Positions 17,629-27,711 of a stretch of DNA of 64,000 nucleotides are shown here, piece after piece. Source of the DNA: Shigella phage SH-2. A program made the translations under genes and the position numbers. Each line of letters starts with the position of its first letter. Position 1 is the first letter of the stretch. The DNA lies in the sequence record PQ642267. One strand, 5' to 3'. The notes beneath the pieces are model-generated. The model ran no database searches. It saw only the letters and a program-made list of their open reading frames with translations, and was not told where the DNA came from.

Positions 17629-17958
17629 TCAATTAGAAAATAAATTTATCCAAGATTGCTCTTTAATTAAAAATGGCTCAGAATCATATGCCATTAAACT
17701 TTGGGTGATTAGTCCTTTAAAAGGTCCATCAATAAATTCCATGGTAAAATATGGAATTTTATTCATTAATCTTGCATTAGGAGCAGTACACAAAACTCTG
17801 CATCCTTTGAATACGCCTTTTTGTAATTTGTATTGCTTAGGATAAAATTCGCTCAAGACGTTGTTATTTGCCAAAATTTCAAAATGATTCACCAATTTAT
17901 TTTTAATAGTTTTTGGCGAAAAATAAAGATATTCGAAAAGTTGCGTGTCTGTCATCAT
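17629..17958 (-). CDS. hypothetical protein (~109 aa)
   Basis: ATG at 17956-17958 overlaps upstream stop (ATGA); track start 18009 also ATG. Confidence 0.4.
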
Positions 17959-18497
17959 TGCATTCCGATTATGAAAAACTGTGGACGAGTAATACCACCA
18001 ATGCAGCATTTACTACTGCAACAGTGGTGCACAGTTTCAATATGAATATCGTAAATTTTATCCATATCAGGAGATTTAACAGGCTCATCGATTATATACA
18101 AAATCCGCGAAAGCGATAAACCTCTGAACTTGCTTCCTTTATTACCGATAAAACTACGGACAGAATCGGTAAATAAGCGGAATCGAATATCATCGCCAGA
18201 ATAACGAGAAAATTCTTTTTTAATGTGGCCCGCAGAAATTTTAGCGTAAGCTGAAGTATTAGAAAGAACAATAACTGTTCCACCATCATACAGCCAATTA
18301 GCGGCAAAATTAGTTACTGCAGTTGATTTACCGGATTGTCTGCCACCATCTAAACGAAGTGTACAATATTCTTTAAATAAATGCGACGAATCAGGTACAT
18401 AAAATCCACTATTACAGATTTCTTCTACTCTAGCATCAGAATGGTGTGTAAAAGCATTCATCAGGGATAGATAAGGACCAGTTAAAAATGTTCTCAT
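17955..18497 (-). CDS. small P-loop NTPase (Walker A GGRQSGKST, Walker B-like IIDEP)
   Basis: ATG at 18495-18497 with AGAGAGAA SD (track start 18545). Confidence 0.45.
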   Translation of the reverse strand: MRTFLTGPYLSLMNAFTHHSDARVEEICNSGFYVPDSSHLFKEYCTLRLDGGRQSGKSTAVTNFAANWLYDGGTVIVLSNTSAYAKISAGHIKKEFSRYSGDDIRFRLFTDSVRSFIGNKGSKFRGLSLSRILYIIDEPVKSPDMDKIYDIHIETVHHCCSSKCCIGGITRPQFFIIGMQ

Positions 18498-18645
18498 TTT
18501 ATTCTCTCTAAATTTGGGCCATTCCATGGCGCATGAATTGTCCATTTCTGTATTTACCCATTACCGCACTTGGGCTCGACCTTATTACAGGTTGGCGGGA
18601 ATCCCTCACAGAATCATGAGGTCCAGCTTGTTCCCATGTTATTTG

Positions 18646-18712
18646 AATGTAAATATTTTTGCCGTAATACTTGTACCAGTGTGGCTTTATTAAAATTTTT
18701 TCATCGAGTCAT
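18646..18712 (-). pseudogene. denV remnant: start codon fused to 3' terminal ~65 bp of denV (reads ATG ACT CGA TGA)
   Basis: 18646-18710 identical to 19421-19485 (denV 3' end); preceded by a copy of the denV promoter/RBS; junction at shared ACTCG. Confidence 0.6.
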
Positions 18713-18721
18713 TTTACCTCT

Positions 18722-18767
18722 CCAAGTAATTATGAATATACTATCACAATTTTAGGAGAAAGTAAAC
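18722..18767 (-). promoter_or_regulatory. early promoter/RBS repeat, copy 2 (46 bp, 3 mismatches vs 19844-19889)
   Basis: Minus strand GTTTAC...TAGTATATT then GGAGAGG SD; duplicate of denV upstream region. Confidence 0.55.
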
Positions 18768-18769
18768 TG

Positions 18770-19072
18770 TTATTTACCTTTAATTACTTTAGCTGCTTCG
18801 ATAGCCGCTTGCTGAAGGTCATCCATAGACATACCGAATTTAGAAGCAAAGTTATCAATTTTCTTTTCGACAGCATTCAAAGGCTTGGCCTGTTTACCTT
18901 CATTAGCACCAGGAAGAGCGAGAATACGCTCTTTGTCAATATAAAGGCTTACAAGTTTCTTACGGTCTTTATCGGACAAATCATGAAATGAATGGGCCTT
19001 TTTATTTATAGCGGCTTCTAATTTACCTGCACTCACTCGCGCTTCAGTAATAAATTCTTGATATGTTTTCAT
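18770..19072 (-). CDS. internal head protein, IPII-like (100 aa, capsid-targeting leader MKTYQEFITE)
   Basis: N-terminal leader with predicted gp21 cleavage site after ITE; 100 aa as T4 IPII. Confidence 0.65.
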   Translation of the reverse strand: MKTYQEFITEARVSAGKLEAAINKKAHSFHDLSDKDRKKLVSLYIDKERILALPGANEGKQAKPLNAVEKKIDNFASKFGMSMDDLQQAAIEAAKVIKGK

Positions 19073-19090
19073 GTGTGTATCCTTTAATTT

Positions 19091-19408
19091 TTATTCTTTA
19101 GGGAAGTTTTTAGAATATGCATCATAAAGCTTATTTCCAATACGGCGGAAAACTCTAGCCGCAAAACGATTTTCTGGGTTTTTAATCATGATTTGCATCA
19201 TATAAGTACCCGCGTCAGAAAGAGCTTCTTCATAGTACCCATTAATTTCTTTAAGAGTCCTACGTTTACCACCAGGACCATCAACAGTAATTTTCCATTT
19301 ACCTGTAGAAGTGCGGCTCGGTGGCTCAACTTGTTCAATCCAAATATAACCTCCTTCTACACGTTGTCCTTGGGCAGATTCTGCAATAAATTCTTTATAC
19401 GTTTTCAT
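19091..19408 (-). CDS. internal head protein candidate (105 aa, leader MKTYKEFIAE)
   Basis: Same leader class; body not recognised as T4 IPIII (194 aa in T4). Confidence 0.6.
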   Translation of the reverse strand: MKTYKEFIAESAQGQRVEGGYIWIEQVEPPSRTSTGKWKITVDGPGGKRRTLKEINGYYEEALSDAGTYMMQIMIKNPENRFAARVFRRIGNKLYDAYSKNFPKE

Positions 19409-19417
19409 ATGTTTCCT

Positions 19418-19834
19418 TTAAATGTAAATATTTTTGCCGTAATACTTGTACCAGTGTGGCTTTATTAAAATTTTTTCATCGAGTCGTTGTTGACTCAATT
19501 TAATAGCTGATTTGCATGGGTTATAATCATTTTTCCATTCTACTGGAATATCGCTGATGTCAGGAACTTCAGTGTCTTTTATACTGAACCCGCGTTTTAA
19601 GCATTCCATTATAATGTCTGATTGACGCTTTCGCAAAAATTCTAACTTGTCGTAAAAGAACGTAACATGACCAGAACCTAAAATAAACTCGGAAGATATT
19701 TTAAAATCTTTAACCCGCTTACCATTTGCCACGTGTTTACGAACTATACCAAAAACGCGTGGCAATTCACGGTATTCTGCGATTAAATGTTGATCAGCAA
19801 GTTCAGATACTAAAGTCAAATTAATACGAGTCAT
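19418..19834 (-). CDS. denV: endonuclease V (pyrimidine-dimer DNA glycosylase)
   Basis: 138 aa starting [17 protein letters not shown]...[10 protein letters not shown], recognised as T4 endonuclease V. Confidence 0.85.
19421..19485 (-). repeat. 65-bp direct repeat, copy 1 (denV 3' end); copy 2 at 18646-18710
   Basis: Exact 65-nt match read from the sequence. Confidence 0.8.
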
Positions 19835-19843
19835 TTTATCCCT

Positions 19844-19889
19844 CCAAGTAACTGTGAATATACTATCACAATTCTAGGAGAAAGTAAAC
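19844..19889 (-). promoter_or_regulatory. early promoter/RBS of denV (repeat copy 1)
   Basis: Minus strand GTTTAC...TAGTATATT...GGAGGGATAAAATG. Confidence 0.55.
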
Positions 19890-19893
19890 CACT

Positions 19894-20424
<531 letters not shown>

Positions 20425-24837: not shown

Positions 24838-25401
24838 TTATTTATCTAGTTTAGTTATTATAGCTTCTGCGGCAGCTTTTAGCTTAGATGCGGTGTTAAT
24901 ACGATTTTTAATTTCAGTATACGCATCGCCAAGAACGTCAAGGCTATCAGAATAAACACTTACACTATTGCGTTCGCTATTTGAAATAGAACCTTTAGTT
25001 TTACGATCAAAATCGGTGTACACGTCTTGAAGATCACGGGCTGCCTTCTTTGCATCATCCAATGCATCAAGAGCTTTATTCAAAGCATTAACGTATTTTT
25101 TAGTGTCGAACATATTCTTAGAAATTTTAACAGGTGCGCGTTCAGGAGTAGCTAATGCAGATTTAGGAACCTGAGCGCCAGATGCCAATTTCTTAGAAAT
25201 TTTGAAAAACGCTTTATTGAATTTATTTTCTTGACTCATCGTAAAAGAACTATTATCGATGTTGTACATTTCAATAGCTTTAGCTTTCCACTTAAGAAAA
25301 TCGCCTCGGTCTTTTGGGTCCAAGTGGAAGAATACTTTAGTAAGATCTGCTTCAGATGGTAATTTTGCTGCTTCGGTTAAAAATTCGGCATAGGTTTTCA
25401 T
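24838..25401 (-). CDS. candidate capsid-targeted internal protein (187 aa, leader MKTYAEFLTE)
   Basis: N-terminus matches the leader of IPI/IPII (MK[TS]Y.[EQ]F...E); predicted gp21 site L-T-E/A. Confidence 0.55.
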   Translation of the reverse strand: MKTYAEFLTEAAKLPSEADLTKVFFHLDPKDRGDFLKWKAKAIEMYNIDNSSFTMSQENKFNKAFFKISKKLASGAQVPKSALATPERAPVKISKNMFDTKKYVNALNKALDALDDAKKAARDLQDVYTDFDRKTKGSISNSERNSVSVYSDSLDVLGDAYTEIKNRINTASKLKAAAEAIITKLDK

Positions 25402-26754: not shown

Positions 26755-26830
26755 TGGTCGAGGCAGTAGGGATCGAACCTACGACCTAGGACTTAGAAGG
26801 TCCTTGCTCTTCCTTCTGAGCTATGCCCCG
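26755..26830 (-). tRNA. tRNA-Arg (anticodon TCT), CCA encoded
   Basis: Manual fold: acceptor CGGGGCA/TGCCTCG, D-arm GCTC/GAGC, anticodon loop CTTCTAA, T-arm GTAGG-TTCGATC-CCTAC, 76 nt. Confidence 0.8.
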
Positions 26831-26833
26831 TAA

Positions 26834-27499
26834 TTAAAATTTCATTTTTCGACCTTTAAACCATCCTTCTGGAATTGGGTCAGTTTTCTTAATACGTTTA
26901 GAAACTTTTTCATCTAATGAATGAATCCACATCATACCAAATTGGGAATTCTTTTCTCCTTTCTGATGATTATTTTTAGCGTGAATTTCTTTCATTTTAT
27001 TAATAGTTTCAGGAGTATGATGCTTATTTAAAAATCTGCTATTATTTAAAAATTTTTCCTTGTATTCAGGAGTTGACCACAAACGTTTAAATACATTTGA
27101 ACCAATTTTACGATATTTTTCTTGAAGTAAAATATCATTTTCAAAACGTGATTTAAACGATTTAGCTCCTTTTAAACTAGCATCTTTCTTCTGGTTTAGC
27201 ATCCCAGGAATATTTATATGGTCCCATCCACCTTCACCACCAAGTTTTAAATTATACACATCTGGTCTATTTAAAAACTCTTCTGTGACAATATTTTTCT
27301 CAGCTTCAAGCATAGATTCTTTATCATCAAAATACTCTAATATTTCTTTAGAAAAATTTTCTATACCATACTTGTCTTGGGCTCTTTTTAATAATTTACC
27401 AGAACCCATATATCCATCATCTAAATTTTCGGTAGAATGCACACCAATATAAATTTTATTATTAATTTTATTTGTTATTTTATAAAGATAAAAATGCAT
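26834..27499 (-). CDS. segB: GIY-YIG homing endonuclease (SegB-like)
   Basis: YLYKI...IYIGVHST...YMGSG motif; ATG at 27497-27499 gives 221 aa; alternative ATG at 27541. Confidence 0.7.
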   Translation of the reverse strand: MHFYLYKITNKINNKIYIGVHSTENLDDGYMGSGKLLKRAQDKYGIENFSKEILEYFDDKESMLEAEKNIVTEEFLNRPDVYNLKLGGEGGWDHINIPGMLNQKKDASLKGAKSFKSRFENDILLQEKYRKIGSNVFKRLWSTPEYKEKFLNNSRFLNKHHTPETINKMKEIHAKNNHQKGEKNSQFGMMWIHSLDEKVSKRIKKTDPIPEGWFKGRKMKF

Positions 27500-27545
27500 A
27501 TCAGTCCCTAATAAAGAACTGAGCGTCTCACGACGAGTCATAAAT

Positions 27546-27619
<74 letters not shown>

Positions 27620-27624
27620 AAATT

Positions 27625-27711
27625 TGGTGCGAGAAGTGGGACTCGAACCCACAAGGAAATCATTCCGCAGCATTTTAAGTGCTGTGCCTTTACCAATTTG
27701 ACCATTCTCGC
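27625..27711 (-). tRNA. tRNA-Leu (anticodon TAA), class II long variable arm, CCA encoded
   Basis: Acceptor GCGAGAA/TTCTCGC, anticodon loop CTTAAAA, T-arm GTGGG-TTCGAGT-CCCAC, 87 nt. Confidence 0.8.

Follow-up and report, generated by a model that had tools for sequence, protein, structure and literature searches.

The region between e and vs.8 of Shigella phage SH-2, a T4-like phage (Tequatrovirus), carries an intact denV directly after e and, behind two internal-protein (IP) genes, a 122-bp remnant made of the promoter, start and 3' end of a second denV. Where this second copy came from, how it lost its body and whether the repeats that it leaves behind move the IP genes were asked using the 64,000 nucleotides of record PQ642267 analysed here (the window) and its database relatives. 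The remnant is, with high probability, the in-situ relic of a vs.8-proximal denV that underwent a single old 347-bp deletion, followed by spread and conversion.

The locus is the e-to-vs.8 'internal protein' hyperplastic locus. The gene order is e, denV, Ip10, ipII, remnant, vs.8, compared with e, ipIII, ipII, denV, vs.8 in T4, and all genes are on the minus strand. Its features are the following.

19894 to 20388, minus strand: e (T4 lysozyme), a 164-aa ORF, the left conserved flank of the variable locus
19835 to 19893, minus strand: P copy 1, putative promoter plus denV leader TTGGAGGGATAAA, repeat D2
19418 to 19834, minus strand: intact denV (endonuclease V, allele A), e-proximal; phrog_1183, E = 1.7e-61
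19417 to 19488, minus strand: 72-nt 3'-end repeat, copy inside the intact denV, repeat D1
19091 to 19408, minus strand: Ip10 internal-protein gene, an ORF with leader MKTYKEFIAE; phrog_3966
18770 to 19072, minus strand: ipII internal-protein gene, leader MKTYQEFITE; phrog_7857, E = 4.5e-55
18713 to 18767, minus strand: P copy 2, putative promoter/RBS of the decayed vs.8-proximal denV ('cataattac' type), repeat D2
18701 to 18712, minus strand: three-codon mini-ORF ATG ACT CGA TGA over the deletion junction
18642 to 18713, minus strand: 72-nt 3'-end repeat, remnant copy (denV nt 347-417), repeat D1
18498 to 18645, minus strand: conserved denV/vs.8 spacer, the right-hand homology anchor, 93-100% identical across T4-likes
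17955 to 18497, minus strand: vs.8 homologue, a P-loop protein, the right conserved flank; phrog_1488, E = 1.3e-77

The flanks are those of T4: e has 95% nucleotide identity to T4 e (100% to that of phage SH-1) and the vs.8 homologue agrees in position with T4 vs.8. The variable part lies where the IP locus of T-even phages is expected, between e and the denV/vs.8 block. Both Ip10 and ipII begin with the conserved capsid-targeting leader MKTYxEFI.E, and IP genes have in common the upstream sequence AAATATTT(ACATTT)AAAGGAAACAT-ATG. The promoter/translation-signal sequence of about 70 bp that is typical of this locus is represented, as judged by sequence, by P, which follows e in all relatives and also precedes denV. 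The number, order and identity of the cassettes vary, with at least 10 architectures among 30 or more loci.

The gene next to e encodes a 138-aa product that matches phrog_1183 over residues 1-134 (MTR...AEYRELPR) and has T2, R22, E23 and R26, thus including the Thr2 and Glu23 that define a full-length endonuclease V; the intact gene described in the original prediction is therefore confirmed. With an ORF of three codons, the remnant does not encode such an enzyme. The intact denV is 99.5% identical to that of SH-1, and the RBS of Ip10 abuts its stop codon (TAA AGGAAACAT ATG). The two genes first labelled 'ipX' and 'ipII-like' can now be named: the former is Ip10, as annotated in JK38 and JS09, and the latter is ipII itself, with 96% nucleotide identity to T4 ipII and 99-100% identity in all carriers of the remnant. 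IP genes encode injected anti-restriction effectors, and T4 Ip1, Ip2 and Ip3 inhibit three different GmrSD type IV restriction enzymes, one each (PMC12373910), so the content of the IP locus sets host range. Regulation of the denV leader by RegB was considered and discarded, the GGAG of T4 denV being RegB-resistant.

A repeat search of the window returned two direct repeats that flank the IP genes. D1 is the denV 3' end (18642-18713 versus 19417-19488, 72 nt, 97% identical), and D2 contains the promoter, the RBS and the first denV codons (18705-18767 versus 19827-19889, 63 nt, 92% identical). Both elements do recur downstream of the IP genes as first reported, but the copies are similar, not identical. 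The 35-nt core of the promoter occurs at two sites only in the 64-kb window, both at the D2 copies, against a chance expectation of 0. D1 and D2 overlap within the remnant at the hexamer GACTCG (18705-18710). In the intact denV this hexamer is found at both deletion end points, 19827-19832 and 19480-19485 (denV nt 3-8 and 350-355), and once at the remnant junction, as expected of a microhomology-mediated deletion. Since GACTCG lies at both end points in the intact gene, the microhomology is 6 nt and not the pentamer ACTCG, as had been proposed; the proposed loss of the gene body between short direct repeats and the reading ATG ACT CGA TGA (18712-18701) were both borne out. Both GACTCG sites are also present in most intact vs.8-proximal denV alleles. 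The fused remnant implies a deletion of 347 bp, keeps 8 nt of the denV 5' end and about 65-70 nt of the 3' end, and has its stop codon changed from TAA to CAA.

The two copies of P have different affinities. Copy 1 has a T4-early-type promoter (GTTTAC, 18 nt, TAGTAT with a preceding TG). All relatives conserve the first 47 nt past the e stop codon, irrespective of the next gene, and copy 1 looks like a chimera of this 'after-e' promoter and the denV leader. Copy 2 is 98.5% identical to the promoter before the intact vs.8-proximal denV of VIPECOOM01 and JE01, and 92% identical to copy 1. P is probably an early promoter, judging from its likeness to T4 early-promoter cassettes and from the literature; P was not called by a generic scan for sigma-70 promoters and terminators, which returned no terminator in the locus either, so that the promoter status of P rests on homology.

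The identical junction is present in 17 GenBank records, corresponding to 15 phages of Tequatrovirus and Mosigvirus, out of 858 records matching the locus, and it is accompanied by the TAA to CAA change in the 15 phages. An exact-match scan of IMG/VR with the 22-nt junction gave 0 matches, so far limiting it to isolate genomes. Twelve carriers have the arrangement e-eORF-denVB, in which denVB is an allele of about 70% identity, and three have e-P-denVA. The 3' end of the remnant continues into ATAACATGGGAACAAGCTGG..., as does the intact vs.8-proximal denV of VIPECOOM01, JE01, ZCEC14 and UGKSEcP1. Since its tail is contiguous with the sequence that follows an intact vs.8-proximal denV, the remnant is a relic of a denV in the T4 position. 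The CAA variant of the stop codon is common to the remnant, UGKSEcP1 and TB004. This collinearity and the occurrence of the junction in 15 other phages do not support a second copy that was made and decayed in SH-2 itself. The scar is old and travels with ipII.

The order e-denV-IP, which the original prediction presented as a departure from T4, is not unusual either: the e-P-denV junction is found in 238 database records. A standard arrangement with no cassette polymorphism in close relatives had been named as evidence against the original prediction, and here the arrangement is common, yet the cassette is polymorphic, as the comparison with SH-1 below illustrates.

The history that we favor would begin with one deletion of 347 bp between GACTCG hexamers, which removed the body of a vs.8-proximal denV and left behind its early promoter and Shine-Dalgarno sequence, a mini-ORF of start and stop, and 65-70 nt of the 3' end. 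It would have occurred once, in a vs.8-proximal allele already bearing the TAA to CAA change. The block ipII-P-remnant-spacer would then have spread via homologous recombination through Tequatrovirus and Mosigvirus. The loss was presumably tolerated because every carrier also has a denV immediately after e. A crossover within the shared promoter seems to have given rise to the e-proximal P-denV module, and the denV-IP joint would use a 35-nt sequence that precedes IP genes elsewhere too. In SH-2, an SH-1-like left arm (e-P-denV) was probably joined to an Ip10-ipII-remnant right arm, which would have put two 72-nt denV 3' ends in direct repeat, with gene conversion since. The homology, the junction, its distribution, the mosaic boundaries and the shared private variants are observed directly; as for the order of events, we infer that redundancy came first and decay followed.

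This order has a competitor. The deletion could have hit a phage whose sole denV was vs.8-proximal and dispensable, an e-proximal denV being acquired by recombination afterwards, so that redundancy had no part in the decay. The deletion may indeed have preceded the e-proximal copy, because TB004 (an internal 187-nt deletion in the vs.8-proximal denV) and pSe_SNUABM_01 (complete loss of that gene) show decay with no intact denV anywhere in the locus. In addition, a search of 463 records with a chimeric denVB+denVA query (E<=1e-60) returned no genome with two large denV copies, and the two-copy intermediate is thus inferred rather than observed. On the other hand, all 15 database carriers have a full-length e-proximal denV gene, with an intact ORF of 137-138 aa in 14 (in the sparsely annotated ECCR664 it is interrupted at 73 aa). 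Moreover, ZCEC14 shows the reciprocal state, a truncated e-proximal denVB with an intact vs.8-proximal denVA, a pattern most simply explained by a two-copy ancestor. Loss before regain is a possible order, though the less likely one.

An unannotated structured element of 45 nt with strong covariation was observed in the spacer at 18552-18600, about 50 nt downstream of the remnant. Its 32-nt core is invariant and enclosed by a covarying stem with an invariant bulged G, and the covariance-model match of the element scores 70.7 bits. It occurs in about 1,060 phage records, including T4-like and rV5-like phages, a 151-kb Pseudomonas phage and a 44-kb coliphage, often within a tRNA cluster, next to one or immediately behind the endolysin gene, and is absent from 185,579 bacterial and archaeal genomes. 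Rfam gave no match to the element itself at E<=10, none on the locus at E<=1 and none in four other phage contexts at E<=0.5; ARAGORN found no tRNA in the spacer, and literature searches for the core sequence gave no match. Single-sequence folding of the spacer was no better than shuffles (z = +0.5). A different and weak RNAalifold structure (-5.5 kcal/mol, from a gapped 15-sequence alignment) was rejected, as its pair A90-U108 is broken in T4, ZCEC14, JK38 and others; it was replaced by a model of P1 plus a hairpin, which passes pair counts. Protein coding as a general explanation of the spacer was also rejected, no frame being open in all loci; the T4 annotation places the spacer in the vs.8 N-terminus.

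The remnant might also be a maintained regulatory module, its promoter, SD and mini-ORF being kept to transcribe the downstream structured element and vs.8. The promoter part is retained in four independent forms of decay (the window type, JS09, TB004 and pSe_SNUABM_01), the promoter of the carriers is 89-94% identical to the e-proximal P copy of the window, and a strongly conserved element does lie downstream. However, SH-1, ESh33, Ge15 and JK38 have no promoter before the spacer, and pSe_SNUABM_01 has P but has lost the structured element. We regard a maintained module as unlikely. The narrower version, in which promoter, SD, mini-ORF and 65-nt tail are kept as the expression module of an unrecognised phage RNA gene about 50 nt downstream, is more doubtful still. 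If it were true, conservation of the RNA would also supply the right-hand homology for IP/denV cassette exchange across genera.

To return to the relic and its spread, what the repeats do can be judged against SH-1, at 99.0% over 24 kb the closest relative. The SH-1 locus is e-P-denV-Ip4-spacer, with Ip4 where SH-2 has Ip10-ipII-remnant, and no remnant. The cassette is thus polymorphic among close relatives, as had been proposed. For about 1,200 nt, ending at denV nt 371, the two sequences align with 0 mismatches. Within denV they differ at nt 372 and 387 only, and at both the window's intact copy matches its own remnant: A at 19463 and C at 19448 in the intact copy, A at 18688 and C at 18673 in the remnant. 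G and T occupy these sites in SH-1 and in each of the 14 other remnants, A372 is found in no database sequence, and the best database match to the 72-nt repeat of the intact copy is 98.6%, none reaching 100%. Such shared derived states in paralogous copies are the mark of concerted evolution and point to gene conversion between the two denV 3' repeats, a reading drawn from two sites in one assembly; conversion presumably went from the intact copy to the remnant. The repeats had been suspected of interacting, and this signal agrees with that.

The same data weigh on the version first proposed, a recent duplication of the phage's own denV in which one copy decayed and the repeats drive exchange of the IP cassette. 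The 3' ends of the window do differ at one site only within the shared 71 nt, and SH-1 does have a different cassette. Nevertheless, this version is already contradicted by the distribution of the junction, which occurs in 15 phages of two genera, and most of these have a denV of 70% identity next to e. Since about 7 sites separate the corresponding pair in BYEP01, the near-identity of the window's copies is due to secondary homogenisation. The left bound of the block swapped relative to SH-1 is formed by the denV 3' end with the conserved IP leader, and its right bound by the conserved spacer, outside the far copies of the repeat pair. These are generic conserved flanks, and the exchange has no need of the remnant; indeed, 235 of the 238 e-P-denV phages swap cassettes without one. 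A recent duplication is accordingly very improbable. An assembly artefact, with the remnant or the identity of the 3' copies arising from mis-assembly or polishing over a short repeat, is hardly credible: although the private variant occurs in both copies and in no other record, and consensus polishing can homogenise repeats, the same remnant recurs in 15 phages that were sequenced independently, the stop codon and every promoter-type site still distinguish the copies, and the 72-nt repeat is shorter than ordinary reads.

As a relic, the scar serves as a natural lineage marker, recording the movement of an ipII-containing block between Tequatrovirus and Mosigvirus backbones. It indicates that both ends of the locus have harboured denV, that duplicate copies were resolved quickly and in either direction, and that in nature a length of about 70 nt is still enough for repeats to exchange sequence. 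The region has been known for 30 years to shuffle genes, so the scar is informative but not surprising. The known picture is refined, not changed; a new question could come from the neighbouring RNA-like element with its covariation.

Both mechanisms have been described before, namely the shuffling of the IP locus (Repoila 1994) and the microhomology deletions of T4. The polymorphic IP loci of T-even phages (Repoila, Tetart, Bouet & Krisch 1994, EMBO J 13:4181), as summarized in PMC2839356 and PMC12373910, have the same e...denV location, a conserved capsid-targeting leader of about 11 aa on the ORFs, a conserved sequence of about 60-70 bp with an early promoter and RBS, and cassettes variable in number, order and identity, for which shuffling via the conserved sequences was proposed. 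The bounds of the swap relative to SH-1 are the generic conserved flanks that, according to the same summaries, these authors had already proposed. Our literature searches, which covered Repoila 1994 through such summaries, turned up no earlier account of such a junction in a denV relic, of a change in denV position within the locus or of gene conversion between denV ends.

The PeSL cassettes of RB49/phi1-type phages (Arbiol et al. 2010, PMC2839356; Comeau et al. 2014, PMC4122927) are likewise repeated promoter-bearing intergenic sequences that act as sites of homologous recombination, with ORFs between them deleted, inserted or swapped and chimeric promoters remaining. Excised mini-circles from recombination between flanking cassettes are a PeSL feature (Arbiol 2010, PMC2839356); for SH-2, recombination between the 3'-end repeats would be predicted to give circles of 775 bp, and between the P repeats circles of 1,122 bp. 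In contrast to P, which is of the T4-early type (GTTTAC...TAGTAT), PeSLs combine a sigma-70-type promoter with a G/C-rich stem-loop. Scans of both P copies revealed neither an inverted repeat nor a terminator-like hairpin, and membership of P in this class is rejected because the G/C stem-loop is absent, in agreement with Arbiol et al., who consider IP-locus elements to be analogues and not homologues of PeSLs (PMC2839356).

Decay of the vs.8-proximal copy has a parallel in the Mosigvirus JS09, whose truncated denV (JS09_060, 45 aa, KF582788) also lies downstream of ipII, with an intact denV adjoining e. The deletion there is independent: nt 1-110 survive in JS09 but the 3' end does not, while the window type retains 8 nt at the 5' end and 70 nt at the 3' end. 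For T4, deletions and amplifications at 6-10-bp microhomologies, including losses of ipIII, were shown experimentally by Srikant et al. 2022 (PMC9391042), who cite Kumagai 1993 and Wu 1991, 2021. As in SH-2, a 6-bp direct repeat is present at both parental ends with one copy in the product, the deletions span hundreds to thousands of bp, and the neighbourhood is the same, ipIII having been lost in evolved clones. Those were laboratory events within days, whereas the SH-2 scar is a natural allele that has lasted and has spread over two genera.

Every gene at 17.9-20.4 kb of the window lies on the minus strand, and the locus is laid out as follows.

Features of the locus in the window
19894-20388, minus: e (lysozyme)
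between e and denV: P, an intergenic promoter/RBS element of 59 nt
19418-19834, minus: denV, 138 aa (phrog_1183, E = 1.7e-61)
19091-19408, minus: internal-protein (IP) gene
18770-19072, minus: second IP gene
between the second IP gene and vs.8: non-coding stretch of 122 nt (the remnant), then a spacer of 148 nt
18552-18600, minus: unannotated 45-nt element with the 32-nt core ACCUGUAAUAAGGUCGAGCCCAAGUGCGGUAA
17955-18497, minus: homologue of T4 vs.8

A third ORF with an IP leader (MKTYAEFLTEA..., 187 aa; 24838-25401, minus) is located ~5 kb farther upstream on that strand and is presumably a second, ipI-type IP locus; tRNA-Arg and tRNA-Leu are found at 26755-27711.

A repeat search of the window recovered both repeat pairs and the fused remnant described in the original prediction. 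The 3' end of denV is repeated over 72 nt at 97% identity (18642-18713 and 19417-19488), and the promoter, RBS and first codons over 63 nt at 92% (18705-18767 and 19827-19889), so the pairs are similar and not identical as first described. The promoter core does not occur again within the 64-kb window, where 0 occurrences are expected by chance. The two repeat pieces overlap in the remnant at GACTCG, a microhomology of six bases and not the pentamer first proposed. GACTCG occurs twice in the intact gene (nt 3-8 and nt 350-355) and once in the remnant, which thus corresponds to denV lacking 347 bp; its short frame is ATG ACT CGA TGA. This junction is a textbook microhomology deletion; in T4, deletions and amplifications at 6-10-bp microhomologies, including loss of ipIII, have been documented by experiment (PMC9391042).

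The remnant does not derive from a second denV copy created in this phage, as had been proposed. Its 3' piece continues unbroken into ATAACATGGGAACAAGCTGG..., exactly what trails an intact vs.8-proximal denV, while the e-proximal denV is followed instead by AGGAAACAT-ATG of an IP gene. Its promoter matches the one preceding the vs.8-proximal denV ('cataattac' type) at 98.5% identity, against only 92% for the e-proximal copy in the window itself ('cacagttac' type). Its stop mutation, TAA to CAA, is shared with the vs.8-proximal denV of UGKSEcP1 and TB004. Because of this tail continuity, promoter type and shared CAA, the remnant is, on sequence grounds, the T4-position denV decayed in place. 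In UGKSEcP1 (locus L006, 1609-2160), the TAA>CAA change (window 18644-18646) sits in an otherwise intact vs.8-proximal denV, whose ORF runs on through the spacer for another 45 codons; the annotation gives an endonuclease V of 183 aa.

The window belongs to a Tequatrovirus, and matches to the locus were found in 858 phage records, only 6 of which cover at least 80% of it in one piece. About 35 related loci were fetched, and a library of elements (e, P, three denV alleles, Ip10, ipII, ipIII, Ip4, ipY, spacer and vs.8) was mapped onto them. An 80-nt junction query matched 17 records from 15 phages (94-97.5% identity), and all of these except AV113 were retrieved and aligned. The aligned carriers all share this junction together with the CAA change, and therefore the deletion occurred once; each also has ipII (99-100% identical) directly upstream and the spacer downstream. 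The left side is e-eORF-denVB in twelve carriers and e-P-denVA only in BYEP01, N2 and the window.

Remnant carriers with e-eORF-denVB
Mosigvirus: HX01, SF, ZQ3, PHB12, RPN187, AV112, AV117, TH58
Taxonomically unassigned: ECCR664, NHEP29
Tequatrovirus: W143, SP1

The e-proximal denV is intact (137-138 aa) in all aligned carriers save ECCR664, an incomplete and sparsely annotated record in which the ORF ends at 73 aa. The remnant goes unannotated in all 17 records, two of which call a 'hypothetical protein' over it.

The position and allele of denV vary among relatives.

Arrangements of the locus in relatives
T4: e-P-ipIII-ipII-denV-vs.8
VIPECOOM01, JE01: T4 order, with the window's denV allele A (96-97% identical)
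UGKSEcP1: e-P-ipII-P-denV
ESh33, Ge15, JK38, SH-1: e-P-denV-(Ip10)-Ip4-spacer
Mosigvirus and some Tequatrovirus: e-eORF-denVB-IPs..., denVB being only ~70% identical to allele A

The e-P-denVA junction is present in 238 records, and 108 have the denVA-spacer junction; the e-denV-IP order, initially read as a departure from T4, is thus common and not exceptional. At least three denV alleles (A, B and the T4 type) share only 70-77% nucleotide identity (window 19418-19834 against the T4 locus and locus L014), and in the same phages the flanking e and ipII are at least 95% identical. The vs.8-proximal denV has decayed in at least three other ways (JS09, TB004 and pSe_SNUABM_01).

Other denV decays
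JS09 (L011): nt 1-110 of the vs.8-proximal denV kept, annotated as truncated endonuclease V
TB004 (L012): 187-nt internal deletion in denV, no intact denV
pSe_SNUABM_01 (L013): denV gone, with the first 87 nt of the spacer
ZCEC14 (L008): e-proximal denVB truncated (nt 1-114), vs.8-proximal denVA intact

No genome with two large denV copies was found among 463 records. Recombination would place a denV on either side of the IP cluster, a state quickly resolved by losing either copy, and the window's remnant is probably one such resolution, since passed around with ipII. Alternatively, denV could have been lost first and regained later; TB004 and pSe_SNUABM_01 have lost denV without a backup copy, as this order of events supposes.

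The nearest database genome, Shigella phage SH-1 (99.0% over 24 kb), has e-P-denV-Ip4-spacer-vs.8 without a remnant, so even very close relatives differ in their cassette, as anticipated in the original prediction. The two phages are identical across ~1,200 nt covering the nudE 3' end, e, P and denV nt 1-371, differ in denV at nt 372 (A in the window, G in SH-1) and nt 387 (C and T), and diverge completely from 22 nt into the IP gene. Alignment picks up again where the spacer begins, with an identity of only 96%. The limits of the exchanged block are the denV 3' end/IP leader (left) and the spacer (right).

Both denV differences sit in the 72-nt repeat, and the window's remnant has the same states (18688 and 18673). 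The other remnants have G and T at these sites (14 of 14), C387 is found elsewhere only in e-proximal copies (ESh33, Ge15), and A372 is in no database sequence (best matches 98.6% and 97.5% with two queries). In BYEP01 the intact and remnant copies differ at ~7 sites. The simplest explanation is that the intact copy converted 16-67 nt of the remnant by gene conversion, in a tract ending before the stop-codon site; an assembly artefact behind the shared variants is unlikely. Of the proposal that the repeats drive cassette exchange, the data support only the part that they interact, as seen in the shared A372 and C387.

Over the first ~47 nt past the stop codon of e, all relatives agree, whichever gene comes next: GTTTAC, 18 nt, TAGTAT, then ATTCACAGTTAC. 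Beyond this the leaders are gene-specific, TTGGAGGGATAAA-ATG for denV and TAATTAAAATATTTAAAGGAAACAT-ATG for IP genes. A common after-e promoter followed by a denV-specific leader thus suggests that the e-proximal P-denV is a chimera of the two, which a crossover inside the shared promoter would yield. Shuffling based on promoters is an idea of Repoila et al. 1994, as outlined by Arbiol et al. 2010 (PMC2839356). The denV-IP joint AAAAATATTTACATTTAA|AGGAAACATATGAAAAC has a 35-nt identity to the stretch preceding ipII in the ipIII-ipII spacer of T4, and short homologies able to create or resolve joints may therefore be scattered through the locus. In T4 this 35-nt stretch, shared with the window's denV-Ip10 joint, is a fusion of the final 18 nt of allele-A denV to the IP leader; the ipIII-ipII spacer also has a hairpin formed by an inverted copy of part of P. 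Loci L004, L005, L012 and L014 are among those with a 76%-identical partial copy of the vs.8-side spacer's 3' 90 nt after ipIII. The fusion, the hairpin and these copies are traces of earlier rearrangements.

The 148-nt spacer is 93-100% identical across all T4-likes, and its 32-nt core ACCTGTAATAAGGTCGAGCCCAAGTGCGGTAA stays nearly invariant even between phages whose e genes share only 65-75% identity. With a 38-nt query, the core was found in 1,058 phage records (two copies in 30 of them) from Straboviridae, Vequintavirinae (rV5-like), Pseudomonas phage PsgM04F and the 44-kb coliphage EcoPhCCP1, in 14 metagenome contigs, and in 0 of 185,579 bacterial and archaeal genomes. Copies of the element lie in T4 (NC_000866 64864-64895, minus) and in the fetched loci L131 (2501-2538), L132 (2501-2535), L133 (2501-2532) and L129 (1898-1928). 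The 18 'Campylobacter' matches probably belong to rV5-like phages and do not mark a lineage of their own; 'Campylobacter phage A112b' (L134, MG065682.1) is classified as Vequintavirus FFH2. The core shares the strand of its neighbours and is often located within or upstream of tRNA clusters, or immediately follows an endolysin gene.

No frame is open in all versions of the core. Among 29 distinct sequences, pairing is 100% at the three base pairs closing the core (2, 5 and 5 pair types), and the closing stem surrounds a bulged G that never varies. Covariation scores 0.399; shuffles give 0.108, with 0 of 500 reaching the observed value, and slid partners give at most 0.088. The G-U pairs are compatible with the sense strand only. 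No Rfam family matched the element, which is a candidate new structured phage RNA and gives cassette exchange at the locus a natural right-hand homology anchor.

The T4 annotation places the core in the N-terminus of vs.8, the CDS (64253-64912, 219 aa) starting MRDSRQPVIRSS... and crossing the element. In the window (18498-18609) and most relatives a stop codon closes that stretch ahead of the MRTFLTG start, and the T4 extension is probably an annotation artefact. TH58 (L089) and SF (L091), both Mosigvirus, have two spacer copies, 96% and 79% identical to the window's, with an IP-leader ORF in between; cassette duplication can thus include the spacer and its element.

A literature search found no paper describing this relic, and the remnant adds one more example of processes that are already well known; it does not represent a new kind. 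PeSL cassettes are analogous to the window locus, which falls outside that family because it has no G/C stem-loop. With the T-even IP hyperplastic locus, the window locus agrees in every respect that can be tested.
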